DNA of 62,331 bases, taken from contig JBDSMX010000145.1 of assembly GCA_039915645.1 (NCBI GenBank), positions 1 to 62,331 on the forward strand, read 5' to 3'. Of this stretch, positions 5,946-62,331 are shown piece by piece (within the stretch, counting starts at the first letter, position 1; the number at the start of each line of letters is the position of its first letter). The translations under genes were made by a program, and so were the position numbers. The notes beneath the pieces were generated by a model. That model had not been told where the DNA came from. It worked only from the letters and a program-made list of their open reading frames with translations, and did no database searches. This stretch comes from Gemmatimonadales bacterium (GTDB lineage: Bacteria; Gemmatimonadota; Gemmatimonadetes; Gemmatimonadales; GWC2-71-9).

Positions 5946-7321
5946 AGCGCTCCGAAACGCTCTGGTCGCCCGGGTCCGCTCCCGATGCCCAGATGCTGGC
6001 CTACACGGTCGCGGACGATCGAGAGATCGACAGCCGACTTCTCCGCTGGGACGTGCTCGGGTCGTTGGGACATCTCGAGGCACTCGCCAAAGGGAAGATC
6101 ATTTCTCCGAAGGAGCGCGCCGGCATGCGGCGAGCGCTCCTTGCCGCGCTCAAAGCGGTCGATGCAGGCGAGCTGCGAATCAGCGGGGCCCACGAGGATG
6201 GCCATTCGGCGGTGGAGTTCTGGCTCACCAAGCGTTTCGGAGATGTGGGGGAGCGACTCCATGCCGGGCGGTCCCGCAACGACCAGGTCGTGACCGATCT
6301 CCGGCTCTGTCTCAAGGACGAAGTGCTGACGCTGCACTCCCGGATGCTCGGGCTCGCTGAGGCGCTCCTCGCCTTTGCCGCACTGCACAAGCGCGTGCTC
6401 TGGCCGGGGTACACCCATCAGCGTATTGCGATGCCATCGTCTGCGGGCCTCTGGGCTGCGGGTTATGCCGAAGGCCTGCTCGATGCCGCCGATGCGGTGC
6501 ACGGCTTCTGGAGCCGACTCGACCGATCGCCGCTCGGGAGTGCCGCTGGATATGGCGTGCCGCTCCCGCTCGCGCGCGAGGCGGCAGCCAAGGCGCTCGG
6601 CTTCGCCGGACTCGATCAGGTCGTCACCTCGGTCCAGGGAGGGCGCGGCACGCTCGAAGCCGCGGTGCTCTTCTGGTGCACCGAGGCTGCCCATCACTGC
6701 GCCAAGTTTTCGGCCGACGTGATTCTCTTCTCGGCGGATGAGTTCGGCTGGATCACGTTGCCCCACGAGCTCTCCACCGGTTCGAGCATCATGCCGCAGA
6801 AGCGGAACCCGGATCTCTTCGAGCTCACACGGGCACGCGGCGCCGCCATCGAAGGCGATCTCGCGACGATCCTCGCCCTCAAGGGGCGGCTCGCGGGCGG
6901 CTATCATCGCGATTTCCAGTTTCTCAAGGCACCGCTCTTCCGAGGTCTCGACCGAATGGCCGAGATGCTGGCCATGCTGACAACGGCGGTACCGCGGCTC
7001 GGAGTCGATGCCGCGGCGGGCCGCGCCGCGCTGCAGGGCGACGTCCTCGCCACCGATGAGGTGATGCGACGTGTCCGCGGCGGAACGCCGTTCCGACGCG
7101 CCTATCGTGATGTGGCCGCGGATGTGAAGGGTGGTGTCGCGATGCCGGCGCTCAGCGCGACCGAGCTGATCGCGGCGCGAAGCAAGAGCAGTGGCGGGAT
7201 CGGCAATCTTCCGATCGCGGGATTGCGGCAACGCATTCGCCTGGCCGCGCGATGGAATGCGGTGCGGCGTGCGTCGTATGCGCGCGCCCTTGCACGTCTC
7301 ACTGCAGCGAGGGCGCGATGA
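5942..7321 (+). CDS. argH: Argininosuccinate lyase
   Basis: HAGRSRNDQV, PGYTHQR, STGSSIMPQKRNPD signature. Confidence 0.96.
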   Translation: MKRSETLWSPGSAPDAQMLAYTVADDREIDSRLLRWDVLGSLGHLEALAKGKIISPKERAGMRRALLAALKAVDAGELRISGAHEDGHSAVEFWLTKRFGDVGERLHAGRSRNDQVVTDLRLCLKDEVLTLHSRMLGLAEALLAFAALHKRVLWPGYTHQRIAMPSSAGLWAAGYAEGLLDAADAVHGFWSRLDRSPLGSAAGYGVPLPLAREAAAKALGFAGLDQVVTSVQGGRGTLEAAVLFWCTEAAHHCAKFSADVILFSADEFGWITLPHELSTGSSIMPQKRNPDLFELTRARGAAIEGDLATILALKGRLAGGYHRDFQFLKAPLFRGLDRMAEMLAMLTTAVPRLGVDAAAGRAALQGDVLATDEVMRRVRGGTPFRRAYRDVAADVKGGVAMPALSATELIAARSKSSGGIGNLPIAGLRQRIRLAARWNAVRRASYARALARLTAARAR

Positions 7322-7782: not shown

Positions 7783-9752
7783 TCCGCAGCGGGTACATCG
7801 TGTTCCTGCTCGCCGCTCTGGCGGGCTGTGCCACCGATGCACCCACGCGCCCACCCGACCGTCCTCTGATTGAATGGCCGAGCTACGGCGGCGATCTGGC
7901 CGCCACGCGCTGGTCTCCCGCCGCCGACATCACGCCCGACAACGTCAGCCAATTGAGACCGGCCTGGACCTGGCGCACGGGCGAGTATGCCCACGTCGAC
8001 CGGCATACTGGCGAGCACATGCTGCCGGGGTTCTTCGAGGCCACGCCGGTGATGGCGGGCGACACCTTGTATCTCAGCACGCCGTTCTCTCGCGCCGTCG
8101 CCCTCGATGCGATCACCGGCAAACAGCTCTGGGCCTTCGATCCCGATGTGACGCGCTATGGGCTGATTGCCAACGAGCATTCGGGCTTCGTCCATCGCGG
8201 GGTCGCCCTCTGGCAGGGAGATGGCGGCCGGCGGGTCTTCCTCAATGCACGCTGGCAACTCTTCGCGCTCGATGCGCAGACCGGTCGACCCATTCCGGAG
8301 TTCGGTGATGCCGGTGTGGTCGATCTCACGAAGAATCTTCGCTGGCCGGTGAACCGACTTCATTTCGGGCAGACGTCACCGCCGCTGATCTGGCGCGACG
8401 TGGTGATCGTCGGCAGTGCGATCGGTGACGCACTCCTCTACCCGCGTGATCCACCCGGTGATGTGCAGGCGTTCGACGCCCGCAGCGGCACGCGCCTCTG
8501 GCGCTGGGATCCGCTTCCGCCGCTTGGCGCGCCGGCCGATTCCTCGTGGCGTGCAGGTTCCGCCGAAGTAACGGGGCACGCCAATGTCTGGGCACCGATG
8601 TCGCTCGATACTGCGCGTGGTCTGGTCTACCTCCCGATCAGCGCCGCGAGCAATGACTTCTATGGTGGCCACCGGCTCGGCGACAATCGGTGGGCGCAGT
8701 CGATCGTCTGTCTCGATGCGCGCACCGGCAAGTTCGTCTGGGCCCAGCAACTCGTGCATCACGGCCTCTGGGACTATGACCCGCCCGGAGCGCCGGTTCT
8801 GCTCGATGTGATGCAAAACGGGGTGTCGGTTCCGGTCGTCGCGGTCGCCGGGAAGACCGGCTTCCTCTACCTCTACAATCGCGTTACTGGCGCTCCGCTC
8901 TGGCCGATCGAGGAGCGTACCGCCCCTGCGAGCACGACGCCCGGCGAGATGACATCCGCGACCCAGCCTGCTCCGACTCGACCGATACCGTTCGCACGTC
9001 AGGGGATCGCCGATAGCGACCTGGTGGATTTCACGCCTCGGGTACGGGCGATGGCACGGGCGCTGGTGGCTGGTCACACGCTCGGGCCGATGTTTACCCC
9101 TCCCACACTCGCCGGAACGATTGCATTGCCGGGATGGATCGGCGGAGCTGGCTGGGGTGGCATGACGGCGAACCCCGACCGTGGTGTGCTGTTCATCAAG
9201 GGGACCAACAAGCCGTCGCTGCTCACGCTCGTCGCGAGCGACTCGGCTCGCGGCTACATCCGCGATCCGGCACCACGCTCGATCGACTCCCGGATCATGC
9301 TCCGGCTGCCCCCGTGGCGCGATTGGGGTACGCTGAGGTCACACGTTGCCACGCTGCCGGTGATCAAGCCTCCCTATGGTACGCTGAGCGCCTATTCGAT
9401 CGCGACCGGTGAGCGACTCTGGCAAGTCACCCTCGGCGACCTGCCGGAGGTCCGCAACCATCCGTGGTTGCGCGATCTGCACCTGCCGCCTCTCGGCGTA
9501 CCGGGTGCACCGGGCGGGATGACAACCCGGGGTGGCTTGATCTTCATCACCGGCGGCGGGACCGTGCTCTACGCCATCGATCAGCGCGATGGCGCGGTTC
9601 GCTGGAGCAGCGATCTCGACGTGCGGGGCTACAGCAATCCGATGTCCTATCGCGCCAGCGATGGACGTCAGTATGTGGTGGTCGCCACGGGCGATGGCGC
9701 CGAGGCGAGCCTGCGCGCGTTCGTTCTACCTCTGCAGCAGGAGGAGCGATGA
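7779..9752 (+). CDS. PQQ-dependent dehydrogenase (quinoprotein glucose dehydrogenase family), lipoprotein
   Basis: LAALAGC lipobox, WPSYGGD, FEATP, HRGVA, HHGLWDYD, PPYGTL, NPMSY..DGRQYVVV. Confidence 0.88.
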   Translation: MIRSGYIVFLLAALAGCATDAPTRPPDRPLIEWPSYGGDLAATRWSPAADITPDNVSQLRPAWTWRTGEYAHVDRHTGEHMLPGFFEATPVMAGDTLYLSTPFSRAVALDAITGKQLWAFDPDVTRYGLIANEHSGFVHRGVALWQGDGGRRVFLNARWQLFALDAQTGRPIPEFGDAGVVDLTKNLRWPVNRLHFGQTSPPLIWRDVVIVGSAIGDALLYPRDPPGDVQAFDARSGTRLWRWDPLPPLGAPADSSWRAGSAEVTGHANVWAPMSLDTARGLVYLPISAASNDFYGGHRLGDNRWAQSIVCLDARTGKFVWAQQLVHHGLWDYDPPGAPVLLDVMQNGVSVPVVAVAGKTGFLYLYNRVTGAPLWPIEERTAPASTTPGEMTSATQPAPTRPIPFARQGIADSDLVDFTPRVRAMARALVAGHTLGPMFTPPTLAGTIALPGWIGGAGWGGMTANPDRGVLFIKGTNKPSLLTLVASDSARGYIRDPAPRSIDSRIMLRLPPWRDWGTLRSHVATLPVIKPPYGTLSAYSIATGERLWQVTLGDLPEVRNHPWLRDLHLPPLGVPGAPGGMTTRGGLIFITGGGTVLYAIDQRDGAVRWSSDLDVRGYSNPMSYRASDGRQYVVVATGDGAEASLRAFVLPLQQEER

Positions 9753-50286: not shown

Positions 50287-50359
50287 GGGGCTGTAGCTCA
50301 GCTGGGAGAGCGCTGCTTTCGCATAGCAGAGGTCAGGGGTTCGATCCCCCTCAGCTCCA
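50287..50359 (+). tRNA. tRNA-Ala(CGC)
   Basis: GGGGCTG/CAGCTCC acceptor with G3:U70; anticodon arm CTGCT-TTCGCAT-AGCAG; GGTTCGATCC T-arm; CCA not encoded. Confidence 0.97.
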
Positions 50360-50361
50360 TA

Positions 50362-50397
50362 GACGCCCGCACCGATTCCGGTGTGGGCATCTTTTTT
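50362..50397 (+). terminator. Rho-independent terminator after tRNA-Ala
   Basis: GCCCGCACCG-ATTC-CGGTGTGGGC stem followed by T6. Confidence 0.8.
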
Positions 50398-50415
50398 GCC
50401 CCTCCCATCCCGCAT

Positions 50416-52005
50416 ATGTCGTCCGGACTCCTCGAACTCACCCAGAAGGCCACCACGCTCCGGTTCCCCCGGAGCAGTCGGGTGACCTATCCGGCCCCGG
50501 CGCCCGCCGCTCTCCGTTCCGACTCCGCAGTGGAGTCAGGCGGGGGGCGGGCGGGCGCTACCACTCCCCTTCAGGTCCTCCCCAATTCACGGGCGACCAG
50601 GGGGACGTCGGTTCAGGCGCTCAAAGAGGATCCGCCGATTGATGGTGTCCGGCTCTCGGAAGTGGTGAGTGCGCTCTCCTTTGCGCTCGACCTCACCGAA
50701 GGTCAGCCGATGGGGCACTCGGTGCGCACCACTCTTATCGGGATGCGTATCGGTGACACCCTCGGCCTCACCGACGAGCAGAAGAGTTCGCTCTACTACG
50801 CGCTGCTGCTCAAGGATCTCGGTTGCTCAAGCAATGCCGCTCGGCTGACCTCGCTCTTCGGCGCCGATGACCGGCTCCTCAAGCACGCGCACAAGCTCAC
50901 CGACTGGACCGCCGGCTCGGATCGCGCGAAGCTGGCCTTCAAGTTCTCGGTGCCGGGAAAGTCGAAGCTCGCGAAGGCGTGGCACATGCTGATGCTCGGT
51001 GTGAATCAGCGCGGCAGTGCGCACGAGATGATGCAGCAGCGCTGCGAGCGCGGCGCCGATATCGCCACTCTGTTGCAGTTGCCACGCGGGACTTCCGAAG
51101 CGATTCGCACGCTCGATGAACATTGGGATGGCAACGGCCTGCCGTTCGGTCTCCGCGGCTCGGGGATTCCGATGCTCGGTCGTATCGTTTCGCTGGCGCA
51201 GACCGTCGAGGTCTTCCAGAACGCATTCGATGTGCGCACCGCCTACGAGATGGCGCACGCCCGGCGCGGCCGCTGGTTCGATCCTGTCCTGGTCGATTGC
51301 CTCGATGCATTCCAGATGGACAGCGATTTCTGGAGCCGGCTGCGCACTGCCGATACCCTCAAGGCCGTCAGCGCGCTCGAACCCGAAGACCGCGTGATCG
51401 TGGCCAACGACGAGCGACTCGATACCGTGGCCGAAGCATTCGCGCGCGTGATCGACGCGAAGAGCCCGTACACCGCGCAGCACTCACAGAATGTGGCGTC
51501 CATCGCCGTCACGGCCGCGAGTTCGATGGGAATGGTTGACAAGGACATGCGCACCCTCAAGCGCGCCGCCCTGCTCCACGACATCGGCAAGCTTGGTGTC
51601 AGCAACACGATTCTCGACAAGCCGTCGGCGCTTGATCCGGTGGAGTACGAGACGATGAAGCAGCACACGCGCTTCACGCTCGAGATCCTCAAGCGGGTGA
51701 CCCGCTTCCGTCAGTTCGCCGCCACCGCGGCAGCACATCACGAACGGCTCAATGGCGATGGCTATCACCTCGGCCTGCGCGGCGAAGAGCTCGGGCCAGT
51801 GGCTCGAATGATCGCTGTCGCCGATGTCACCGAGGCGCTCTCCGCCGACCGGCCGTATCGCGCCGGGATGGCCAAGGAAGAGACGTTCCGGATTCTCGAT
51901 CGTCTGGTGGCCGAAGGGCACCTCTGTCCGGCGGCGGTCGAGGCGGTTCAAGGGACTTTCATTGGGCTTCCCTCCAACGCTGTCATCCTGAGCGAAGCGG
52001 CCTGA
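50416..52005 (+). CDS. Tandem HD-GYP domain protein (cyclic dinucleotide phosphodiesterase-like)
   Basis: First domain degenerate (LLKDLG, EHWDG.GLP); second has LLHDIGK, HHERLNG.GY, DRPYR; start approximate. Confidence 0.88.
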   Translation: MSSGLLELTQKATTLRFPRSSRVTYPAPAPAALRSDSAVESGGGRAGATTPLQVLPNSRATRGTSVQALKEDPPIDGVRLSEVVSALSFALDLTEGQPMGHSVRTTLIGMRIGDTLGLTDEQKSSLYYALLLKDLGCSSNAARLTSLFGADDRLLKHAHKLTDWTAGSDRAKLAFKFSVPGKSKLAKAWHMLMLGVNQRGSAHEMMQQRCERGADIATLLQLPRGTSEAIRTLDEHWDGNGLPFGLRGSGIPMLGRIVSLAQTVEVFQNAFDVRTAYEMAHARRGRWFDPVLVDCLDAFQMDSDFWSRLRTADTLKAVSALEPEDRVIVANDERLDTVAEAFARVIDAKSPYTAQHSQNVASIAVTAASSMGMVDKDMRTLKRAALLHDIGKLGVSNTILDKPSALDPVEYETMKQHTRFTLEILKRVTRFRQFAATAAAHHERLNGDGYHLGLRGEELGPVARMIAVADVTEALSADRPYRAGMAKEETFRILDRLVAEGHLCPAAVEAVQGTFIGLPSNAVILSEAA

Positions 52006-52029
52006 AAGGGCGCGAAGTCGAAGGACCTC
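51980..52029. repeat. REP-like repeat, module B copy 2, overlapping the HD-GYP 3' end
   Basis: CTGTCATCCTGAGCGAAG-(20 nt extra)-TCGAAGGACCTC; encodes VILSEAA-stop. Confidence 0.8.
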
Positions 52030-52050
52030 GTTTTCGCGCTGCCCAACCCA

Positions 52051-52123
52051 CCGAACGGGCGGGCGCGTGAACGGCGCCCGGAATACTGGTCGTGCCGCGC
52101 TTGCGCGGCACCGGTCTCGCCCC
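52051..52123. repeat. Palindromic dispersed repeat, module A copy 2
   Basis: CCGAA..CGGGCGC.TGAACGGCGCCCG...GTGCCGCGCTTGCGCGGCACCGGTCTC shared with 47386-47458. Confidence 0.85.
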
Positions 52124-52393
52124 CGAATTGAGTCTACTCGACCCGGCGGGACGGGAGCCGTTCTCGTCGTATCGGATCCACGCGCCATCGATTCGCTCGC
52201 AAATGCCTCGCGAATCGCCGCCGCCGCAGGAGCGACGGCTACTGGCGCGCTCCTACCGATGCGACTGCGAACGACCCCCGTCCCTTGGTTGCCCGGGCCG
52301 TCTGCCGGGATTGCCCACCGAGCGCGATGCCTTGCCCCCTCACACCGTTCAGGGCGACGGGGCAGCCCCCCAGTCCCAATCCGAACCGCGATA

Positions 52394-52422
52394 TTGCCCC
52401 CCGGCTGGCTCGGTTTTAGCTT
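52394..52422 (+). promoter_or_regulatory. Putative sigma70 promoter of tRNA-Gln
   Basis: TTGCCC-17 nt-TAGCTT; same -35 hexamer as the tRNA-Ala promoter. Confidence 0.5.
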
Positions 52423-52439
52423 ATCCCTCCCAGTAGCGA

Positions 52440-52512
52440 TGCCCTGTGGTGTAACTGGCAACACGTCTGCCTCTGGAGCAGAAGACTCCTGGTTCGACCC
52501 CAGGCGGGGCAA
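52440..52512 (+). tRNA. tRNA-Gln(CTG)
   Basis: TGCCCTG/CGGGGCA acceptor (U1-A72); anticodon arm TCTGC-CTCTGGA-GCAGA; CCTGGTTCGACCCCAGG T-arm. Confidence 0.95.
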
Positions 52513-52539
52513 TTTTCCAAGTAGTTGAGCCGTAAAAGG

Positions 52540-52572
52540 TTGGCCGTTCAGCGATCAGCGCTGGGCGGCCAA
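52540..52572 (+). terminator. Hairpin downstream of tRNA-Gln
   Basis: TTGGCCGTTCAGCG-ATCAG-CGCTGGGCGGCCAA (with G:U pairs), TTTT shortly after. Confidence 0.6.
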
Positions 52573-52580
52573 TCGGCGTT

Positions 52581-52602
52581 TTGGGGTAAGGTTAGGGTAA
52601 GG
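52581..52602. repeat. 11-bp tandem direct repeat, possible integrase arm-type site
   Basis: TTGGGGTAAGG-TTAGGGTAAGG about 70 bp from the tRNA 3' end. Confidence 0.5.
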
Positions 52603-52702
52603 AGTGCCAATTTCGTGGGTGCGGCTTTGCGTTTGGGTTGGCCGGGCCCAGACGGGGCCTACCGGATCGATACTCTAGGCTGGTTTGATCACGGAGAGGA
52701 CA

Positions 52703-53182
52703 GTGAAGGCAGAGCTCGTTATCTCGATGGTGGGTGCCGCCACAGGGCTTTGGGCCCTCCGCCTAGCCGTCCTCTCCCTTCGCGCTTCATCGCGAGAGGC
52801 GCGCCGAGGGAATTTGCTCCAGGAGCGGATGCTCGCATTGGAGATCCGCAGGGAGGCAGTTCAAACTCGCCAGGGCAATTCTGCTCGTCTGATTGCAAGG
52901 CTCACCCCTAGCGTAGCCGGCTCGCATCGATCCCTCGTCATCAAGAACCTAGGCCAAGCTACGGCTGCTGACATCGTGTTGCGGATGGATGGGACGCCGA
53001 TCCGGGAGCACCCGGAGCATCTTCGCCCGGATCAGGAGATCCCTCAGCTCGGGCCCGACGCCGAATTTGCCTATCAGCTTTTCATTACGGCATCCAGCCC
53101 CACCAATGCGCGGACGGTTGAACTCACTTGGACAAATGCTGACGGAACGAACGGTATTCACATGACGACCATCCAGCCCTAG
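52703..53182 (+). CDS. Hypothetical protein: N-terminal TM, coiled segment and Ig-like beta domain
   Basis: GGAGAGGA RBS before GTG 52703; hydrophobic N-terminus; LVIKNLG...A.DI motif. Confidence 0.65.
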   Translation: MKAELVISMVGAATGLWALRLAVLSLRASSREARRGNLLQERMLALEIRREAVQTRQGNSARLIARLTPSVAGSHRSLVIKNLGQATAADIVLRMDGTPIREHPEHLRPDQEIPQLGPDAEFAYQLFITASSPTNARTVELTWTNADGTNGIHMTTIQP

Positions 53183-53223
53183 CAGGGCTCAGAAGCTGCA
53201 TAGCCGTCGATTTCAGGGAGCTT

Positions 53224-54336
53224 ATGCGAGTCATCGTGTTAGGTGCGGGGGCATCCGTCCACGCCGGCTATCCTCTCGCGTCGGAGTTGCTGGCAAAAGT
53301 CGAAGAACGTGCGAAAACTTCGTCCTTTGGCAACCTCGGGGATGCCTGGAGTAGATGGGTCGAGTTTCGAGACGGTTGTCCCGAGAGTCTGCAGCTGGTT
53401 GTTCGAAATAACAATCCGGAAATTGTGCTCACGCTTCCCACGCTACTCCAGGCTGCGGCCGACTCCGAGGACGCATCTCGTACGCGAGCGGCTGTCAAGG
53501 AAGCTCAAGCCCATGGGGTTGATGGCCCAGCCCGAACGCTTGAGGAATATTACGCGTCCGCTAGCCGAGATTTCCTTTCACGCGCGAAGATTGGATTGGC
53601 CCACCTGCTTCATGCACTTGACTTGTATTTCCTTGATCATCACGTAAGCGATGGGCATGACGCTCCGGTTCGTGGCCCGTTGACTCGGCTATTAGAAGAG
53701 CTGGAGCCAGGCGATGCTGTAGTTACTCTGAACTGGGACACTACGGCAGAGCGAACATTGTGGGAGTTGGGCAAGTGGAGTCCCCTGGACGGGTATGGAT
53801 TCCAAAAGCGGCTCCTTGTTCGATCCGCCGCTGACGTCGAAGGTCCGGTGCCTGCAACTGCTATGGCGAGTCCCGTCAAGGTTTTGAAGCTGCACGGTTC
53901 ATTCGGCTGGTATCAGGAGGACTCCGAGATCCTTTTTGAGAACGCTATTTACCTCGACGCTTTCAGGTTTGCTTCTGCAGGTCAACTTGTGCCGCTTCTC
54001 GATCCGGGCTTTGGGGTATCTCGCTATCAAGGAGACCACCTGCTGATTACGCCAGCGTTCATCAAGAATTTGACTCATCCTGCTCTAATTGCAATTTGGG
54101 GTGGAGCGAGCGAGGCTCTCGGATCCGCAGATCAAGTCGACGTCTGGGGGTATAGCCTCCCAGATGCCGACGGGGCCGCGCGCGCGTTGTTCCTACCGCT
54201 GAGGGAGAGAGTGCGCACCGGAACAACTGAGGTTCGGATACATGACCCGAGCGAAGGCACTCGTGACCGATGGCGGGCACTCCTTGGTACAGGAGTCACG
54301 ATGCTCAATGAGTCTTTAGGCCGCGATGTGGAGTAA
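53224..54336 (+). CDS. Stand-alone SIR2-like (SIR2_2) protein, putative NADase
   Basis: VLGAGAS, TLNWD, LKLHGS, WGYSLPDAD. Confidence 0.85.
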   Translation: MRVIVLGAGASVHAGYPLASELLAKVEERAKTSSFGNLGDAWSRWVEFRDGCPESLQLVVRNNNPEIVLTLPTLLQAAADSEDASRTRAAVKEAQAHGVDGPARTLEEYYASASRDFLSRAKIGLAHLLHALDLYFLDHHVSDGHDAPVRGPLTRLLEELEPGDAVVTLNWDTTAERTLWELGKWSPLDGYGFQKRLLVRSAADVEGPVPATAMASPVKVLKLHGSFGWYQEDSEILFENAIYLDAFRFASAGQLVPLLDPGFGVSRYQGDHLLITPAFIKNLTHPALIAIWGGASEALGSADQVDVWGYSLPDADGAARALFLPLRERVRTGTTEVRIHDPSEGTRDRWRALLGTGVTMLNESLGRDVE

Positions 54337-54434
54337 CCAATTCAGGCGTGGGGCCGCAGCCGCACCCCCTGCAGGAGCGGGTCGCCACCGGTCGATCGAG
54401 CCTATCATCTCAACAAGAAGTCGGAGTCAGACGG

Positions 54435-55106
54435 ATGGCCCAGCTGGTTATTAAGGACCTACCAAGTCGACTTGTCCGAGCCTTTGCCGAACGCGATCAC
54501 GCCGCGGCGATGGTCGCTGGGCGCATCCGGCTCAGGTCCATACGTTACTACCGCGAGATTGAGGACGAGGGGCGTAGAGACTCAGATGAGTCCGTTGGTC
54601 GGTTACGAGTGCCGGCGGATGTGCAGCGGGTTGCAATTGATTTAGACGGCGGTCTCCCTCGCGATCTTGGAGCTACTCCAGGTCATCTAAATCTCGCGAC
54701 GGAGTTCCTAGATCCGACCTATTTGGTCTGTTGTTCGGATGCTTCGGCCGGTGTTTCCAGCGGAATTGTAAAGTTCGGAGACTTCTTAGTCGACATCTTC
54801 AACCCCAAAGGATTCTCCGAGGCTGTGCTAGAGGCCGCTGGGCGCTCGTCGCTCGGCGGGCGCGGACTGCATTTTGTGGACGCCTTTCCTGTGGAATACA
54901 CCAAAGGAGATGTTGGTGCTGCGCCGCTCGCCGGTGCGTCGATGAGGCTTTCGTATGGCCAAAAGCCTCCGTCCTTCGCTGATGAGAAGGAGTTCCGATT
55001 GGCAGTTGTGGTTACTGGGGGGCTTCGGGATGCACCAGAATTCATCGACCTGACGTTGGAAAATCCTCGGGAATATCTGCGCCATTTTGAATCGCCACCC
55101 GCATAG
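54435..55106 (+). CDS. Hypothetical protein, DUF2971-like
   Basis: YLVCCS, VEY, K...F.DEKEFR pattern; family call tentative. Confidence 0.5.
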   Translation: MAQLVIKDLPSRLVRAFAERDHAAAMVAGRIRLRSIRYYREIEDEGRRDSDESVGRLRVPADVQRVAIDLDGGLPRDLGATPGHLNLATEFLDPTYLVCCSDASAGVSSGIVKFGDFLVDIFNPKGFSEAVLEAAGRSSLGGRGLHFVDAFPVEYTKGDVGAAPLAGASMRLSYGQKPPSFADEKEFRLAVVVTGGLRDAPEFIDLTLENPREYLRHFESPPA

Positions 55107-55318
55107 GCTATGAGGCCGATTGGTAGTTCGTGAATCACCCGGCTCCGCGAGCACTGACTCGTCAGCGCTGAGCGGGATGAACGAGCCGGTCCCTCGCAGA
55201 GCAAGATGTTAGAGTCCTCCATCGAGTTGTCGCTGCTCGCGTGAGGATCTAAGTAGAGTGCGCAACGGACCGTGATTGATTGGGATTGCACCCAGTCCTA
55301 GGTCAGATCGGAGGCTCC

Positions 55319-55999
55319 ATGGATCATCTGAAGCTGTTGGCTAGGTTGAGGCACCAAGAGGACAGCCTAGTAGAGCGGAAACCCGAGGGAGTCAAAGCGG
55401 GCGAGATTCGCGCCACGGCGTGCGCGTTTGCCAATTCTGTTGAAACCGAAGGCACGGCCGTGCTGTTTCTTGGTGTGTCGAACGACGGGGCCATGCTTGG
55501 TGTAACCAACGCAGATAGTCTTCAGAAGACCATTCGGCGACAGCTCTCTTCAGAGTGCTATCCGCCGATAGCATACCAAGCGTACGTGCTCGAGGAGGCG
55601 GGGAAGGCGATCGTCGCAATTGTGATTCCCGCCAGCGCGACGCGCCCTCACTTTTCCGGGTCCGCTTTCGTACGCACCGGATCGCAAAGTGTCAGCGCAA
55701 GCCCTGAACAATATGAACGGCTCATTGCGTCGCGAAACACCGTCGCAGGTGCCCTCGGCCGGGCGATCGGGGAGACATGGACAGTTGTGGCCATCGGGAA
55801 GCGACTAGGAGATACGAAGCCGATTCAACAGGCGTCGCATCGCGAGTCGCTCGCATGTAGGATAGTCGACGTGAATGCCCATTTTGTTCGTCTGCACGAC
55901 CCAAGTTCAGGAACGAATCTGACTGAAGTGCTCGTTAGGGCCGAACTGTCGTTCGATGAGAAGCGGCATCGACGAATGCTTATCGTACGGGGTTCCTAA
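55319..55999 (+). CDS. Schlafen/AlbA_2-domain protein with small C-terminal domain
   Basis: EDSLVERK, CAFANS, LFLGVSNDG..LGV, RPHF...FVRTGSQS; GGAGG RBS. Confidence 0.85.
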   Translation: MDHLKLLARLRHQEDSLVERKPEGVKAGEIRATACAFANSVETEGTAVLFLGVSNDGAMLGVTNADSLQKTIRRQLSSECYPPIAYQAYVLEEAGKAIVAIVIPASATRPHFSGSAFVRTGSQSVSASPEQYERLIASRNTVAGALGRAIGETWTVVAIGKRLGDTKPIQQASHRESLACRIVDVNAHFVRLHDPSSGTNLTEVLVRAELSFDEKRHRRMLIVRGS

Positions 56000-56089
56000 C
56001 CAATCCGCGCGAAGCACTCTGTCCCACCGCTGCGGGCAACTGTAGTCTTGCTTGGCGTGCCATGGCCCAACCTTGCGAGGGGCCTCTCC

Positions 56090-56755
56090 ATGAAGCTCAA
56101 AGATTACTCTCCACTGACATGGCTATTCGAACGTTCTTTTAGACTCCTGGAGTGGCTGCCACCCTCGAACATTGCAACTGCTATACACGGCCGCCGTTCA
56201 AAAATCTCATCTGCCGCGCTCCTCGATCCGAAGCAAACGGCGATTCGAGCAAGAAGCGTGGAGCGGTTTCTGATGGGTTACTTCGGGTGCGACCTCCTCG
56301 GGTTCGGCTCGATGTTCTCAAGCGTGCCCTGTTTTCGGCTGGCCGGGGCTGCTTGGGCGGTTTTGCGAATCACCGCCATCCTCCAAGTGACCATGAACGT
56401 CGCGCTTTTCGATCGACTGCGAGGCCGGACAGACAATCGAATTGCCTCGCTGTCAAGGATGGTAGTTCTCGCGTTTCTGAATTTTGGCGAGTTGCTAGTC
56501 TGCTTCGCAACGATCTATTCCTTCGGCCTTTCGCTGCTTAGCAATGCAAGCGATCCGTGGGATGCTCTGTATTTTAGCGTCACCACTCAGCTCACAATCG
56601 GCTACGGTGATATCACACCTACGGGAGTCCTCCGGGCGGTCGTAGTTTGTCAGGCGTTGAGCGGCCTTGTGTTCGGCGCTCTGGTATTTGCCAGATTTGT
56701 CGCAGCGCTCCCGCCAATCACGGAAATCCTTTCACCAGAAAGTGACGAGGAGTAG
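56090..56755 (+). CDS. Potassium-channel pore (Ion_trans_2) membrane protein without RCK domain
   Basis: DALYFSVTTQLTIGYGDITP selectivity filter flanked by TM helices. Confidence 0.85.
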   Translation: MKLKDYSPLTWLFERSFRLLEWLPPSNIATAIHGRRSKISSAALLDPKQTAIRARSVERFLMGYFGCDLLGFGSMFSSVPCFRLAGAAWAVLRITAILQVTMNVALFDRLRGRTDNRIASLSRMVVLAFLNFGELLVCFATIYSFGLSLLSNASDPWDALYFSVTTQLTIGYGDITPTGVLRAVVVCQALSGLVFGALVFARFVAALPPITEILSPESDEE

Positions 56756-56759
56756 TCGG

Positions 56760-56840
56760 CCAGCAAATGGTTGGAACGATACTTCGATCGTCGATTCGAA
56801 CGATTCTTCCCCAATGCGCTTAAGCTAGCCTCCGTTAGGC
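56760..56840 (+). other. Possible degenerate attC-like site
   Basis: Imperfect palindrome right after a stop codon, ending in GTTAGGC 29 nt before the next ATG; no intact RYYYAAC. Confidence 0.3.
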
Positions 56841-56869
56841 TCGCACTCTCCTGCCCTTTGGACGGTACC

Positions 56870-57745
56870 ATGGACGACGAACCAGGAACACTAGCCGGAA
56901 TCCAGTACTCAGGACTGCCTGGAGTTTCGAAAGAGTGTGTCCGAGCCGTTCTCCGGCTGATTCAATTTGGTGATCACATTTCGCGGGCGAGAATCTTGTC
57001 GTGCGCTAACCGCCATTCCTTCCTGCTAACCATCAATGCTGGTGACTTGATTGCAGTTAAGTCCGGGTTCGGCTCCGGATATGCTGGGGAGGGCGCGTAC
57101 GCCTTGTCCTACGTCCTAGATCTTCTGGACGCCTATTCGGTAGAGATCGAAGAATACGATGTGGCAGACGAGGTCCTCGAGCGTTTGGACAGATCGGGCC
57201 TTACATGGGGTGACCTCCAGGCGATCGACGACTCCCAGTCTCTTTCTCCCGCTCGATGGTACGACTATCAGTTACCGAGTTCAGGTGGTCAGATTGGCGG
57301 CAACTCGCTCTGGAGTCGATTTCCGATGGTGGTGCCGTTCGCGATTCTCGACCCCAGGCTTGAGGATTTGGCTAAATCATTTTCGTCCCAACCCGATCAG
57401 GCGCTGCTGGTAGGCTATCGGCGGCTCGAGGATCTGGTTCGAGGTAGGACTGGGTTGGAGGATTCAGGCCAGAAGTTATTCTCCCAAGCATTCCTCGGAT
57501 CGACACCCCGACTCACTTGGGATGTTATCGACGGCGCAGAGACGGGAGGAAGGGGAACGCTGTTTACAGCGACCTTTTTGGCCCATCGGAATCCGCGGGC
57601 CCACCGAGAAGGACAACGCGATTCACATTGGCAAGCCTTGGAGTTCCTGCTGCTCAATCACCTCTACAGATTGGAAGCTGACGCCCACCTTGTGCCGGAC
57701 TCGCAAGGCAACCGATTGGGTGAATCTCCTCGATCAGGGAAGTAG
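56870..57745 (+). CDS. TIGR02391 (Ymh) family HEPN protein with distinct N-terminal domain
   Basis: LED.VR.RTG...G.KL..QAF and HRNPRAH (RxxxxH); N-terminal VKSGFGSGYAGEG. Confidence 0.75.
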   Translation: MDDEPGTLAGIQYSGLPGVSKECVRAVLRLIQFGDHISRARILSCANRHSFLLTINAGDLIAVKSGFGSGYAGEGAYALSYVLDLLDAYSVEIEEYDVADEVLERLDRSGLTWGDLQAIDDSQSLSPARWYDYQLPSSGGQIGGNSLWSRFPMVVPFAILDPRLEDLAKSFSSQPDQALLVGYRRLEDLVRGRTGLEDSGQKLFSQAFLGSTPRLTWDVIDGAETGGRGTLFTATFLAHRNPRAHREGQRDSHWQALEFLLLNHLYRLEADAHLVPDSQGNRLGESPRSGK

Positions 57746-57748
57746 CAT

Positions 57749-58663
57749 ATGAACTCAGATTATGACGTGGCATTTTCGTACTTGGCGGAGGATGAAGCCT
57801 TAGCAAACACATTGTCCTCACGCCTGAGAGAGCGGTACTCTGTTTTCCACTTCCCGGAAGCGCAAAAGGAGATCGCTGGGCGCGATGGAATTGAGGTGTT
57901 CGGTCGTGTCTTCGGACGTGACGCACGGGTTTGCGTCGTTCTGTATCGTAGCACTTGGGGCCACACCAAATGGACACGTATTGAGGAAACAGCCATCAAA
58001 GAGAGGGCCCTGGAGCAGGGCTGGGAATTCCTGCTTGTGATCTCGCTGGATGGAGGCCAGTCACCCGTCTGGCTCCCGAAGACAAAGATATGGCTCGGCT
58101 ATGAGGCGTATGGCGCGGATGCCGCAATTGGGGCGATTGATAGTAAGATCGCGGAGGCGGGCGGTGTGCCGGTGACCGAGTCGCCCGGAGACAAGGCGCG
58201 CCGAATTGGAGAGCTCTCGGAACGCCGTCAGGCTAGAGAAGTATTTCTCGCGTGTTCTCGGGGGCTCGTCCTAGCGGGGGACGAAGTGCGCCATCTCCAG
58301 ACCCACTTGGAACGGCACGTGAGTGAGATCGTTCGCGCCCCGGGGATGGCTGGCGTGCGTTTCATCGGCGCTACGACCTCTGTCACGGCCGTTTCCTCGC
58401 CTGCTTTAAGTGTGAGCTTCGGCTGGCATACCCCGTTCCAATCCTCGTTGCACGACGCGGCATTGACCGTGCGATACTACGACGGTCTATATCTTCCTCA
58501 AGCCTACGGGGGTGGACCCCAGCTCATCGAGGAGCATGTCTACATATTCTCGCTCGGCAGTGATGATGAACCACAGTGGATGCAGCTGCACGACTCGCAG
58601 CTGATCTCAACCGTGGCTCTCGCCAACGCTGCACTTCATCGCATCATCGATGCCCTTGGATAG
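57749..58663 (+). CDS. TIR-domain protein with unknown C-terminal domain
   Basis: YDVAFSY..ED, CVVLY..TWG.TKWTRIE (candidate catalytic Glu), P.WLP. Confidence 0.82.
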   Translation: MNSDYDVAFSYLAEDEALANTLSSRLRERYSVFHFPEAQKEIAGRDGIEVFGRVFGRDARVCVVLYRSTWGHTKWTRIEETAIKERALEQGWEFLLVISLDGGQSPVWLPKTKIWLGYEAYGADAAIGAIDSKIAEAGGVPVTESPGDKARRIGELSERRQAREVFLACSRGLVLAGDEVRHLQTHLERHVSEIVRAPGMAGVRFIGATTSVTAVSSPALSVSFGWHTPFQSSLHDAALTVRYYDGLYLPQAYGGGPQLIEEHVYIFSLGSDDEPQWMQLHDSQLISTVALANAALHRIIDALG

Positions 58664-58685
58664 ACGTGGTCTCGGGAGGAAACGA

Positions 58686-59417
58686 ATGTCAGGAATGGGA
58701 CTTCATACTGGACGACTCCAGCAGTCACTCGCTGCAATCGATGGCCTCCTCGTCGACGGGTCGACCGCGCACTCGGCCGCATTTCAGGAATGGCGCGATG
58801 GGACCCTGCGAGCGCTACGCGCGATGCGAGGGGAGGATAGCCCTTCGGTTAAAGCCTTCGGCAGCCTCGGTTTCTGGAATCTCCGGGTGATGGTTGGGAG
58901 GGCGACGACCTGGAACGACCGCGATCAGGCGCGATACGAGACGGACCTGGGCAGGACGAAGGGGCTGTTGTCTGAAATACTTGAGGAGGAGGCCGGAATC
59001 GCACCACCGGCAGCGGGACTTGGGGGTGGGTTGTGGGGCCTTATGCACCCGGAAATCACGGCGCTCTCCAAAGCTCGCTTTGAGGCTGGCCACTTTGCCG
59101 ATGCAGTCGAGGCGGCGCTGAAGGAAGTCAACCTAGCGGTAAAGGCCAAGGTAGCGGCCAGAGGCGCACCGGGCGCAGACGGGGCGGCACTAATGACGCA
59201 GGCCTTTTCGCTAAAGAATCCTCTCGTCACCCTGGACGATCTAAGCACCGAGAGTGGAAGGAACGTGCAGCAGGGCTATCTCCAAATATTCGCAGGAGCG
59301 ATGACCGGCATCCGAAACCCCAAAGCCCACGGAAATCTCACGATCTCGCCAGAGAGGGCGATTCACCTGCTATTTCTCGCGAGTCTGCTTCGATTCAAGG
59401 TGGACGAAGCATTGTAA
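58686..59417 (+). CDS. TIGR02391 (Ymh) family HEPN protein with helical N-terminal domain
   Basis: HPEI...F..GH..DAV..A.K.V, DG..LM.QAFS, QQG...FAGA..GIRNPKAH; GGGAGG RBS. Confidence 0.88.
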   Translation: MSGMGLHTGRLQQSLAAIDGLLVDGSTAHSAAFQEWRDGTLRALRAMRGEDSPSVKAFGSLGFWNLRVMVGRATTWNDRDQARYETDLGRTKGLLSEILEEEAGIAPPAAGLGGGLWGLMHPEITALSKARFEAGHFADAVEAALKEVNLAVKAKVAARGAPGADGAALMTQAFSLKNPLVTLDDLSTESGRNVQQGYLQIFAGAMTGIRNPKAHGNLTISPERAIHLLFLASLLRFKVDEAL

Positions 59418-59504
59418 TCGCTGGCCGGAAGATGCCTCAGCTGATTTGGGGTTGGAAGATGTGTCGCTTGAGACGACCCGCGACTGCTGTGCAGGGAGAC
59501 TGAC

Positions 59505-60509
59505 GTGGCCAGGAAGCCCAATCCGAGCAAAAGCCACCACCACAATCCGCAGCACTACTTGAAACGGTTCTGTCCCGGGGGCGGGGAGGAGCTTTACGTG
59601 TACAGGCGTGAGTGGCAGACGCCAAAGTTCCTCCATACCCGAGTCACAGGGCAACAAACCAGGCTGTACACGCCAACAATGACTTCGGCGGACGTCTCGC
59701 CGGATGTGATAGAGCACGCACTACGGGACCTGGTTGACGGGCCGGCCTCCCTACTGCTTCCGAAGCTGGCAGCCGGAGAAGTATTGTCAATCGACGAGCG
59801 GCTGACTGTCGCCAGGCACATTGGCGTCCAGTCGATTCGCGGCCCCTGGATGAGAGCTCAGTACGACGCCTCTGCTGAATTCCTGAATTTGCGGACTTTC
59901 AGGGGCTACCTCGAATACACAGCGAAGCGAAGCGCGCAAGACCCCGCGTATGACGGCCCGAAGCTCGAGCAGGCGGAACTAGTGAGCATGCTCGCAGCGA
60001 TAGACAGTGGGGAGGTCGGGCTGGATTTCACGAAGGATCACTGGCTCAGCTTCGTAGTGGAGGCGCTCTTGGATCCCGAAATACCGGCCATCATCGCTTC
60101 ATTGCCATGGGTCGTGGTCACAACGCATTCTGGTGTCTTTGTGACTTCGGATAACCCTGTCGTAAAGGCAAGGGTTTTTGACCGGTTCCCTGGGCAGCCT
60201 AGAGCTGGCTGGCTGTCCCCGAGCATCGAAACGACCTACGCCTTGGACCCAAAGCGCTTGCTAGTGATGAGAGCCGGACTCAAGGAAGGGTTGGGAACGG
60301 CCTCGAAGTCATGGCGAGAGGATGTCAATCGACGGTGCGTCGAGTACGCGAATGAAGAGTTCTATTCAGTGAATGAACAGCCAGGTCTCCATCTTCGATT
60401 CGCTCAGGCAGCTCCCGTCAGAGTTCATACTGGCACGATCGACGATGGGAAGAGGGAGCCAGTCTTGCACGTCGCTGAGCCATACGTCGAGGGACGCCCG
60501 TTCTCTTGA
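59505..60509 (+). CDS. DUF4238 family protein
   Basis: HH.PQ.YLKRF N-terminus, LY, IE, FVTSDNPV. Confidence 0.82.
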   Translation: MARKPNPSKSHHHNPQHYLKRFCPGGGEELYVYRREWQTPKFLHTRVTGQQTRLYTPTMTSADVSPDVIEHALRDLVDGPASLLLPKLAAGEVLSIDERLTVARHIGVQSIRGPWMRAQYDASAEFLNLRTFRGYLEYTAKRSAQDPAYDGPKLEQAELVSMLAAIDSGEVGLDFTKDHWLSFVVEALLDPEIPAIIASLPWVVVTTHSGVFVTSDNPVVKARVFDRFPGQPRAGWLSPSIETTYALDPKRLLVMRAGLKEGLGTASKSWREDVNRRCVEYANEEFYSVNEQPGLHLRFAQAAPVRVHTGTIDDGKREPVLHVAEPYVEGRPFS

Positions 60510-60581
60510 CGACCTTCGCTCGAATCGGATGATGCAAGTTGGAGATCGCCAGCTAGGTCTCCGCACACCCCAGAGGCACGA

Positions 60582-62147
60582 ATGAACACGCCCGACGATC
60601 ATCAGAGGGCATTTCAGGAACTCGCCGGCCCAGCGTACGAGGCTCTACGGGAAAGTCCAGTGCGGGCGATCGCCATTGCTCGGACGCTAGTTGCAATACC
60701 TCCGCTCACGGAGGCGGACACGGTGGTGCTTAAAGCGGGCATTCTCGTTGACGCAGGCGGGGACCTTGGCGATCTCAAGGTGGTCGAGGAGGGCGCGGGC
60801 TTACTTCGTGAGGTCCTCACAGTCACCCCCGCTCGCCAGGATGCGACATATAGCCTTGGAAACGCATTGAGTGTGCTGGCAGACGTACGCAGCTTCGATG
60901 GCCCAGAGTGGTACTTGAAAACCGGCGCGATGCGAAGAGAAGCGCGAGCGCTATTCGAAGTCGTGGCACAGTCAGATGCACCCGCCGATTTGCGTGCGAG
61001 GGCAATCACAAATCGCGGCAACCTTCTCTGGGAATCACATCGTTGGGTGGAAGCCTACGAATGCTACCGTGCTGCTGCGGAATTGGACCCAACGAACACT
61101 GTCGCCTCATCGGGAGCAGCGCGGCTGTTGCTCTATGCTGCGGAGAAGGGACTCGGACCTGCCACAACTCTGACCGGCTTAGCCCGTGGATACATAGAAC
61201 TTGCTAGGAGGAGCTACCGTGACGACCCGGACCTCCCACGTGACCTAAGACGGCTTATCGCCAAGTTACCGCCTGCATCTGCGCTTGTACCGTGGTCCCC
61301 AAAGCTCCAGAATGCAGACGTATATACTGCGTTCGTTGCGAGGAACCACCTTGCTCTCGGGCTGACGCTTGACGGGCTTGAACCATCGTTGCGTCGATGG
61401 GACAATCTGATGGTGGATTCGATTTCGAAGGACTTCGAGGTCAGACTGGATGAAGGTGACAGCGGGGTTCCGACTCTATTTGCGATGTTCAACCTACTGA
61501 AGGCCGACTTCCTGAGCGCTAGGTACGTCGTGCACCTGGCACTCAACGATCCACCGCAGGAGACTGCGCAGTACGCTGACACACTTGACTACGCACGCTA
61601 TGGGGTGAAGACGGGCTTGCTCCTGCTGGGCCAGCGTGCCGCGATTGACATTCTTGATAAGGTCGCGGTGGCTGTCACTGAGTACTTGAAACTCCCAGGT
61701 AACAGCGATTCGATTCAGTTTACTCGTCGCTGGCTACGCCCGGATAAGAAGAGTGGCAAACCAGCTGTTCCTCTTGCTTGGCAGCGGGAGGTGGCAGCAG
61801 AGATTGGGGCGGGCAACGTGTACCTGATCGCCTTGGCGGAGCTTGCAGAGGATATTGCCCGGGGAGGTGCTCTTGCGACCCATCAGCAGTCCAGGAGTCT
61901 GGCCACTCACGGATTTGTGGTAATGCATGATGAAAGGGTTGAACCTTCGGCCAAGTCACCTCATGTGACCCATCGGGACTTGGCTGAATGTGAAGAACAA
62001 GCAATCCGCTCTCTTCGTGTCGCAAGAGCAGCGATCATTTACCTCGAGATGGTCATCAGGACTCATGAGTCGAACAGGCCATCACGTCGATTCGTGGTAC
62101 CGATGGTTGTGCCAAATCACCACTACATCCGAGGGGAGGAAGATTAG
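60582..62147 (+). CDS. TPR plus LA2681-like HEPN domain protein
   Basis: TPR-like N-half; FN.LK.DF..ARY, DTLDY..YG, R...DILDK.A, N..L.AL..L..D, RSLATH (RxxxxH). Confidence 0.82.
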   Translation: MNTPDDHQRAFQELAGPAYEALRESPVRAIAIARTLVAIPPLTEADTVVLKAGILVDAGGDLGDLKVVEEGAGLLREVLTVTPARQDATYSLGNALSVLADVRSFDGPEWYLKTGAMRREARALFEVVAQSDAPADLRARAITNRGNLLWESHRWVEAYECYRAAAELDPTNTVASSGAARLLLYAAEKGLGPATTLTGLARGYIELARRSYRDDPDLPRDLRRLIAKLPPASALVPWSPKLQNADVYTAFVARNHLALGLTLDGLEPSLRRWDNLMVDSISKDFEVRLDEGDSGVPTLFAMFNLLKADFLSARYVVHLALNDPPQETAQYADTLDYARYGVKTGLLLLGQRAAIDILDKVAVAVTEYLKLPGNSDSIQFTRRWLRPDKKSGKPAVPLAWQREVAAEIGAGNVYLIALAELAEDIARGGALATHQQSRSLATHGFVVMHDERVEPSAKSPHVTHRDLAECEEQAIRSLRVARAAIIYLEMVIRTHESNRPSRRFVVPMVVPNHHYIRGEED

Positions 62148-62331
62148 GCCGTGATTTGTCATTGCACCGGACATCCACGCTAGCAGCCAGGGGCAGAACT
62201 GGTTCTGGAGTGGTCTCGCAAAAACGGACACCTAGTTACGCGGCTCGGGTGAGCTGCGCTTCGTACGCGATCGGACTGACATAGCCGAGGTGCGAGTGTT
62301 GCCGCTCCGGATTGTACCACCCCTCGATATA

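Follow-up and report, generated by a model that had tools for sequence, protein, structure and literature searches.

A tRNA-Gln-anchored integrative island with predicted single-gene anti-phage effectors in a Gemmatimonadales metagenome-assembled genome

What occupies the low-GC DNA that follows a tRNA gene in a contig of an uncultured Gemmatimonadales bacterium, and does it serve in defence against phages? The window analysed here is that entire contig (C60; 62,331 nt), part of a metagenome-assembled genome of 286 contigs and 3.35 Mb (92.5% complete, 1.3% estimated contamination), and the genes in question are ten open reading frames (ORFs), g01 to g10, that lie downstream of a tRNA-Gln(CTG) gene. 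A first-pass annotation of the window had described a tRNA-Gln-anchored defence hotspot made almost entirely of putative anti-phage effectors. We hold it at a probability of roughly 0.68 that these genes belong to an integrative island of ~18.5 kb, inserted in the 3' end of the tRNA gene, whose seven stand-alone cargo genes would act as independent abortive-infection defences against phages. By their predicted domains, these seven are a SIR2-like protein, a Schlafen, a TIR protein, three HEPN proteins and a DUF4238 protein. Catalytic motifs are intact in the SIR2 (N170/D172/H224), TIR (E79), Schlafen (Ex4ExK) and all three HEPN (Rx4H) domains.

The boundaries of the island are marked by composition and by a direct signature of integration. 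Guanine-plus-cytosine (GC) content drops at the tRNA gene from 0.663 (positions 1-52512) to 0.576 (52513-62205), against a genome mean of 0.655, and none of 1444 genome windows of 9.7 kb reaches a value as low. The compositional shift noted at first pass is therefore real, as are its ten same-strand genes, which are ten plus-strand ORFs filling 52685-62147. The attL core recurs as attR on a second contig, C178, with 100% identity across 43 bp, and the flanks of the repeat diverge on either side. At this repeat, the GC content of C178 steps from 0.652 to 0.584. No other regions of the assembly are as low in GC as the two halves of the island. A P4-type tyrosine integrase of 404 amino acids (aa), with Arm-DNA-bind_3 and Phage_integrase domains, is encoded ~180 bp inside the repeat (C178:14268-15482), and a core prolyl oligopeptidase gene lies beyond it. 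A scan of C178 for tRNA genes found none. Both the integrase and the duplicated tRNA 3' end that an extended contig had been expected to reveal are thus present on C178.

The two halves are separated in the assembly by an IS3-type insertion sequence (IS), whose transposase has rve/HTH_21 domains. One end of this 1247-bp element terminates C60, and the opposite end makes up the last 127 bp of C178 and the start of C18. Target-site duplications of GTTC (62202-62205 on C60) for C60/C178 and of AAG for C200/C18 were observed, and the alternative pairing of the IS-ended contigs gave no duplication; C60 with C178 is therefore the sole pairing that fits. The break at the end of C60 is due to this IS, which explains two breaks in the assembly. 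From these contig ends, the island likely runs without interruption from C60:52513-62205 through the IS into C178:21679-14088, read in reverse, for a length of ~18.5 kb.

We examined how this locus is distributed in relatives. The 9-kb cargo DNA had no match at E ≤ 1e-6 in any of the 51 other genus genomes searched (five candidates scored per genome), and the adjacent 2.3-kb core flank was present in all 51, so the cargo region is not conserved core. DNA 3' of tRNA-Gln was taken from 33 relatives, and two stretches shorter than 1 kb were dropped. Low-GC inserts starting at tRNA-Gln were found in six of the remaining 31 (G049, G050, G009, G040, G041 and G012), indicating that this tRNA gene is a recurrent insertion point. 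Taken together, the tRNA gene, the 43-bp repeat, the integrase and the absence from relatives uphold the horizontally acquired, tRNA-Gln-anchored island of the first-pass annotation.

Two of the occupied sites are clearly related to the island described here. After the tRNA gene, ~90 bp are common to G049, G050 and this genome (94-97% identity), and all three carry an XRE module (83% aa identity); G049 additionally has a g01 homologue (58% identical) at the same place. Homologues of g02 to g10 were not found in either insert. Instead, the G050 insert encodes a fused PARIS AriAB matched over its full length (1.5e-129), along with proteins containing RES and HNH domains, and that of G049 a 1201-aa protein with SIR2_2 and DUF4020 domains that matches Dsr1 over its N-terminal part (1.9e-42). 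PARIS and Dsr1 are phage-defence systems. The G012 cargo comprises a type I restriction-modification (R-M) specificity subunit and an AAA_14-DUF4143 ATPase, and that of G009 a cytochrome c peroxidase, a propeller protein and a DsbA-like gene. In G040 (L226, C7:49700-61800) and G041 (L227, C25:77950-84000) we observed 14 and 7 ORFs, respectively, each of at least 90 aa and with no Pfam match.

Among the effector-type genes, the SIR2-like g02 was characterized through its family, which comprises 205 homologues at E ≤ 0.001, mostly 365-375 aa long; PF13289 was matched by 23 of the 120 homologues listed. An alignment of 32 sequences showed G7, A8, G9 and S11 (GAGxS), N170, D172 and H224 to be invariant, and we take the Asn and His to be the catalytic residues. 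Weak matches of the family profile to SIR2 NADases of known structure were also obtained, including KomC (1.3e-4). On these motif columns, the Pfam matches of its family and PADLOC, g02 is a SIR2 (SIR2_2-type) family member. In several long-read-derived genomes (L065, L068, L069, L070 and L102) two ORFs stand in place of one intact SIR2-like homologue, through either frameshift sequencing errors or gene decay.

The TIR gene g07 belongs to a larger family of 1956 representative clusters, nearly all of 300-330 aa, in which TIR_2 was matched by 41 of 56 members and E79 was invariant. When its predicted structure (predicted local distance difference test, pLDDT, 93) was searched with Foldseek, it matched the TIR domains of SPARTA, MAL (TMt 0.67), AbTir (TMt 0.70) and SARM1. 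As judged from this model and the family alignment, g07 is a TIR protein with a conserved candidate catalytic glutamate, E79. Its C-terminal domain of ~160 aa is conserved and matches no family; in searches with the whole model the TIR domain outweighed the rest, and this part received no fold assignment. Sequence searches of the PDB with the single g02, g03 and g07 proteins returned nothing meaningful.

The three HEPN genes, g06, g08 and g10, are assigned to the HEPN RNase families by family model together with an Rx4H motif, which reads RNPRAH in g06, RNPKAH in g08 and RSLATH (residue 438) in g10. In g08, a match to PD-Lambda-3_B (3.8e-12) is restricted to the HEPN part. The g06 family has 891 homologues from bacteria to archaea, the top matches being 50-58% identical. 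In a structural model of g06, the N-terminal domain (residues 11-134) aligned to T. thermophilus TT1805 (1wn9) over 116 residues, with a Z-score of 13.4 and a root-mean-square deviation of 2.3 Å, and the C-terminal domain aligned to HEPN toxins with Z ~7. Within the phylum, g06 was found in one of 400 other genomes, at L224 (G204:C33), positions 6239-7012, amid ORFs without Pfam matches. This homologue lies ~2.5 kb from a tRNA-Leu(CAA) gene (9523-9607), possibly in another tRNA-anchored island. In the Schlafen protein g04, the AlbA_2 domain spans residues 27-140, and EDSLVERK at residue 27 fits Ex4(E/D)xK. For the DUF4238 protein g09 we found no match among phage records.

Table 1. Features of the tRNA-Gln island. 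Positions refer to the window (C60) unless another contig is named; functions are predictions.
Feature	Position	Strand	Identification or match
tRNA-Gln(CTG), integration target	52440-52512	+	ARAGORN; Rfam tRNA 60.5 bits
attL core, 43 bp	52471-52513	+	exact copy at the opposite island end (attR)
g01, 165 aa, one N-terminal transmembrane helix (hydrophobic residues 11-30)	52685-53182	+	island backbone, not cargo
g02, 370 aa, stand-alone SIR2-like, predicted NADase	53224-54336	+	partial PADLOC SIR2 match, 9e-9
g03, 223-aa orphan	54435-55106 (ORF open from 54348)	+	phrog_13198 (no function assigned), 3.4e-11
g04, prokaryotic Schlafen (AlbA_2) with ~90-aa C-terminal part without family, predicted tRNase	55280-55999	+	SLFN_AlbA_2 (PF04326) 3.7e-15
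g05, small K+ channel pore protein	56048-56755	+	Ion_trans_2 6.3e-14
g06, 291 aa, TT1805-like N-domain with Ymh-type HEPN, predicted RNase	56870-57745 (ORF open from 56771)	+	Hypoth_Ymh (PF09509) 1.2e-10
g07, 304 aa, TIR with C-terminal domain, predicted NADase	57749-58663	+	TIR_2 1.2e-3
g08, 255 aa, N-domain without family with Ymh-type HEPN, predicted RNase	58650-59417	+	Hypoth_Ymh (PF09509) 1.2e-26; TIGR02391 3.3e-19
g09, DUF4238 protein	59505-60509	+	PF14022 3e-21, model positions 2-277 of 281
g10, TPR with LA2681-type HEPN, predicted RNase	60582-62147	+	HEPN_LA2681 (PF18733) 1.7e-33; TPR_2 6.6e-6
IS3-type insertion sequence end (transposase gene 3' end)	62206-62331	-	100% identical to C200:7083-7208
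attR	C178:14045-14087	-	100% match to attL across 43 bp

How might such an island operate? We propose that the element would enter by integrase-mediated recombination between its own attP and the tRNA 3' end, and that genes would be exchanged in a cargo bay lying between the backbone gene g01 on the left and the XRE-type regulator on the right. Each effector would be a single polypeptide in which a toxic catalytic domain is joined to a domain without family; the SIR2 and TIR domains would hydrolyse nicotinamide adenine dinucleotide (NAD+), the Schlafen domain would cleave tRNA, and the HEPN domains would cleave RNA. The partner domain would hold the effector off until a phage cue appears, and the infected cell would then stop growing or die before phage release. 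The unassigned domains, which the first-pass annotation had put forward as candidate phage sensors, may have this role. More tentatively, and at somewhat short of even odds, at least one of three families would constitute a new stand-alone abortive-infection system with a new phage-sensor domain: the ~315-aa TIR proteins with their C-terminal domain, the ~285-aa fusions of a TT1805 fold to a Ymh-type HEPN domain, or the minimal SIR2 proteins of ~370 aa. If the second of these proved to be such a system, the TT1805/DUF3197-type fold would gain its first function.

The toxic-domain genes could instead benefit the mobile element itself rather than the host, by addiction, by stabilising it or by attacking rival mobile elements, and would then give no worthwhile protection from phages. 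These genes do sit on an integrase-bearing element, and HEPN and RES domains are described as frequent toxins of toxin-antitoxin systems (PMC3710099), the latter domain occurring in the G050 cargo. Nevertheless, small antitoxin-like genes (e.g. MNT) were not detected beside the HEPN genes, the sister islands hold the PARIS and Dsr1-like phage-defence systems, and homologues of the Schlafen, DUF4238 and single-protein TIR genes are reported to protect against phages in the literature cited below. We therefore regard a role confined to the mobile element as unlikely.

A second alternative to independent defence genes is that some of the cargo genes cooperate, with g05-g08 (56048-59417) forming a sensor-signal-effector cassette and g02 pairing with g03. 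The cargo genes all lie on one strand; successive genes from g05 to g08 are separated by 15 bp and 3 bp and then overlap by 14 bp, and the g02 and g03 ORFs are 11 bp apart. Moreover, terminator-like sites are no commoner than in shuffled sequence; consensus promoter and terminator scans both performed no better than on shuffled sequence. The surroundings of their relatives argue against such cooperation. Around relatives of g02 at 80 genome loci, 23 close ones of which were checked gene by gene (several homologues being frameshift-split), no g03, other cargo gene or recurring neighbour was seen. Relatives of g07 were located at 80 metagenome loci with a 14-sequence alignment of the family; they were never found beside homologues of g05, g06 or g08, had no conserved neighbour, and at one locus (L150) were accompanied by a weak, partial g02-like match. 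For 28 of the g07 loci, of at least 5 kb, we scanned 122 of 143 ORFs of at least 100 aa with Pfam, the 21 left out being duplicates from the near-identical loci L128, L136 and L201 and about a dozen others of 104-305 aa. The neighbours included housekeeping genes, transposases and integrases, as well as the defence genes GmrSD, Mrr, type III R-M, Shedu and HNH. At four g06 loci (one genome and three viral contigs) there was no g05, g07 or other cargo gene, with a weak HEPN cross-match only, and the other members of the proposed cassette were likewise absent from five g05 loci.

The g02, g06 and g07 families are each uniform in length with variable neighbours. As none of the three has a conserved partner, the tight spacing most likely reflects the packing of independent single-gene modules. 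By sequence, g02, g06 and g07 look like such modules rather than parts of a new multi-gene system, and cooperation among the cargo genes appears distinctly improbable; neighbour searches see sequence similarity only and could overlook analogous partners whose sequences are unrelated. Finally, an artefact of binning or assembly, with the low-GC stretch being misjoined foreign DNA, would suit a metagenome-assembled genome in 286 contigs with 1.3% estimated contamination, but is very improbable considering that 52 kb of core DNA are contiguous with the island on one contig, that the att repeat, integrase and core flank occur together on C178, and that related backbone sequences are found at the same tRNA in sister genomes.

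Several observations nonetheless weaken the first-pass claim or weigh against our own reading of the island as a set of seven independent phage defences. The first-pass claim loses force in three ways: the cargo genes belong to, or are variants of, single-gene effector families that are already known; three of the ten ORFs have no link to defence; and the distal half is not defensive. Once completed, the island also contains an integrase, regulators, an IS and a DsbA-like/Cys-rich secreted module, and PADLOC (2023 library) matched none of the distal-half proteins. As to our own reading, the same library, which predates pSlfn (the prokaryotic Schlafens), returned nothing for g04, g05, g06, g07, g09 and g10. 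For g02 and g07 the single-sequence evidence falls below curated thresholds: g02 itself has no Pfam match at E ≤ 0.01, and the TIR_2 score of g07 is 19.7 against a Pfam cut-off of 28 bits. Many neighbours of g07 relatives are housekeeping genes, so the TIR family is not exclusively island-borne. Homologues of g05 occur in five of 400 phylum genomes, at 36-38% identity and in native-GC loci. Of the six occupied tRNA-Gln sites, only three (G050, G049 and G012) hold recognisable defence genes, and no integrase or attR was found in G049 or G050 within the 15 and 10.6 kb fetched. C60 and C178 are linked through contig-end overlaps of 126/127 bp and duplications of 3-4 bp rather than through a spanning read.

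The remaining window genes bear on how much of the island is defence-related. The pore identity of g05 is clear, with TIGYGD at residue 183 and hydrophobic helices on either side. Its homologues are neighboured by genes for an esterase, a permease, Nramp, gamma-glutamyltranspeptidase, polyphosphate kinase and MFS, which vary by locus and constitute non-defence contexts. No plasmid homologues were found, and 'potassium channel' was unmentioned in the papers listed by a loose term search. We rejected g05 as a defence effector, as its homologues at the five phylum loci are not enriched beside defence or mobile genes. For g03, only two homologues were recovered among 5.8 billion proteins, with no Pfam match at E ≤ 0.01 (PF11185 included) and no PADLOC or NCBIfam match; the lead towards DUF2971 is one Atlas cluster (score 0.91) in which 21% of members have that domain. 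Together, g05 and g03 are most likely passenger cargo. Searches of Pfam, PADLOC and NCBIfam with g01 gave no match.

On C178, the distal half of the island encodes an XRE-like protein of 72 aa and an AlpA/Xis-like protein of 73 aa (both labelled by eye), a 159-aa helix-turn-helix (HTH) protein with weak HTH_23 and phrog_66 matches, and a 136-aa protein. We also observed, on the cargo strand of C178:15483-21679 (L005:4484-10680), genes for a Cys-rich secreted protein of 153 aa, a 209-aa transmembrane protein, a DsbA-like thioredoxin (Thioredoxin_4, 1.6e-19) and a 411-aa protein. The Cys-rich/DsbA module may encode a secreted peptide rich in disulfides together with the oxidoreductases that serve it. 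At the same tRNA, the G009 island has a DsbA-like gene and a propeller protein of weak similarity.

Further features of the locus and assembly were recorded. The IS3-type element is 1247 bp long, has TG...CA-type inverted ends and occurs at least twice, bordered by target duplications of 3-4 bp, at window 62206-62331, C200:7083-8329, C18:1-127 and C178:21680-21806. Following the island halves, the third-lowest GC stretch of the assembly (~0.60) is C177:1-4000. An empty site, in which tRNA-Gln would directly join the prolyl oligopeptidase flank, was sought and no clean case was obtained; prolyl oligopeptidase orthologues (73-74% aa identity, four genus genomes) had no tRNA within 1.5 kb, and the DNA 3' of tRNA-Gln is not syntenic among relatives. 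Upstream, the order tRNA-Ala, conserved ~1.3-kb gene, tRNA-Gln (window 50287-52440) recurs in closer genomes of the genus.

These results refine the first-pass annotation of the cargo. Nine of its ten domain calls were confirmed, the exception being the 'DUF2971-like' label of g03, for which there is the Atlas lead and no Pfam match. Its statement that replication, structural and metabolic genes are lacking is true of the window part and not of the whole island. That the island consists 'almost entirely' of effectors was overstated: defence-associated domains occur in seven of the ten window genes, leaving the backbone gene g01, the orphan g03 and g05, whose homologues lie in non-defence contexts, and the distal half holds backbone and DsbA-like genes. 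PADLOC gave partial, domain-level matches with no ThsA, ThsB or PD-Lambda-3_A, in agreement with the earlier view that no named multi-gene system is matched. The defence hotspot itself is supported by defence-type domains with intact motifs and by PARIS and Dsr1-like systems in sister species; several of the architectures are already in print. We thus predict a clear but fairly ordinary case of a bacterial anti-phage defence island. It provides a delimited, defence-carrying integrative element from an uncultured, poorly studied phylum, identifies tRNA-Gln as a recurrent insertion site in the genus, and offers a short list of seven compact candidates, each a single gene whose catalytic motifs are intact; three fall in large families that are unnamed in the defence catalogues queried. 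No new principle is involved, as defence hotspots with exchangeable cargo in mobile elements, like abortive-infection effectors of the NADase or RNase type, are already well documented.

Comparison with known systems places the individual genes more precisely. Thoeris consists of ThsA, a SIR2 or Macro protein with SLOG, encoded adjacent to ThsB, a TIR protein. The island likewise holds a SIR2-like and a TIR-like gene; however, g02 and g07 are separated by four genes, and their respective relatives are found separately, the weak match at L150 being the one exception. A Thoeris identity was rejected on this lack of adjacency and because no ThsA or ThsB PADLOC match was obtained at E ≤ 0.01. In organisation, g07 resembles the single-protein TIR systems that defend E. 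coli (PMC11350192): it too stands alone, needs no fixed partner as far as its neighbourhoods show, and has a conserved glutamate, and it differs in having its conserved C-terminal domain of ~160 aa.

Prokaryotic Schlafens (pSlfns), which comprise 55 architectures, are reported to protect against phages, with 69.6% of them near defence genes, and to be fused to diverse or unannotated domains, 17% being fused to an unannotated one (PMC13056530). The AlbA_2/Schlafen domain of g04, with the Ex4(E/D)xK motif as given in that source, is similarly fused to an unannotated domain, and its own C-terminal part is set apart by matching no family. PD-lambda-3 is described as a two-gene abortive-infection system (PMC13190303). 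The HEPN domain of g08 matches PD-Lambda-3_B over model positions 143-263 of 270, whereas its N-terminal half has no match and PD-Lambda-3_A is matched by no island protein. The Ymh (PF09509) and TPR-fused LA2681 HEPN families were described in 2013 (Anantharaman et al., PMC3710099); g06 and g08 are of the Ymh type, g10 combines TPR and LA2681 as in Table 1 of that paper, and all have Rx4H. The TT1805-fold fusion of g06 is not among the fusions in the passages of that paper that bear on these families.

The island as a whole resembles the defence hotspots that P2 prophages and P4 satellites carry as integrated mobile elements (Rousset et al., 10.1101/2021.01.21.427644). It is distinguished from them by its tRNA-Gln target, its uncultured host, the DsbA-like/Cys-rich secreted module of its distal half, and the absence, among the genes seen in this island, of phage or satellite structural and replication genes. 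As in the P2/P4 hotspots, an integrase-bearing element at a tRNA gene holds a bay flanked by backbone, filled with short, mostly single-gene cargo that varies among close relatives. Both include DUF4238 in their cargo, and a DUF4238 protein from a P2 hotspot is reported there to confer strong resistance to T7.

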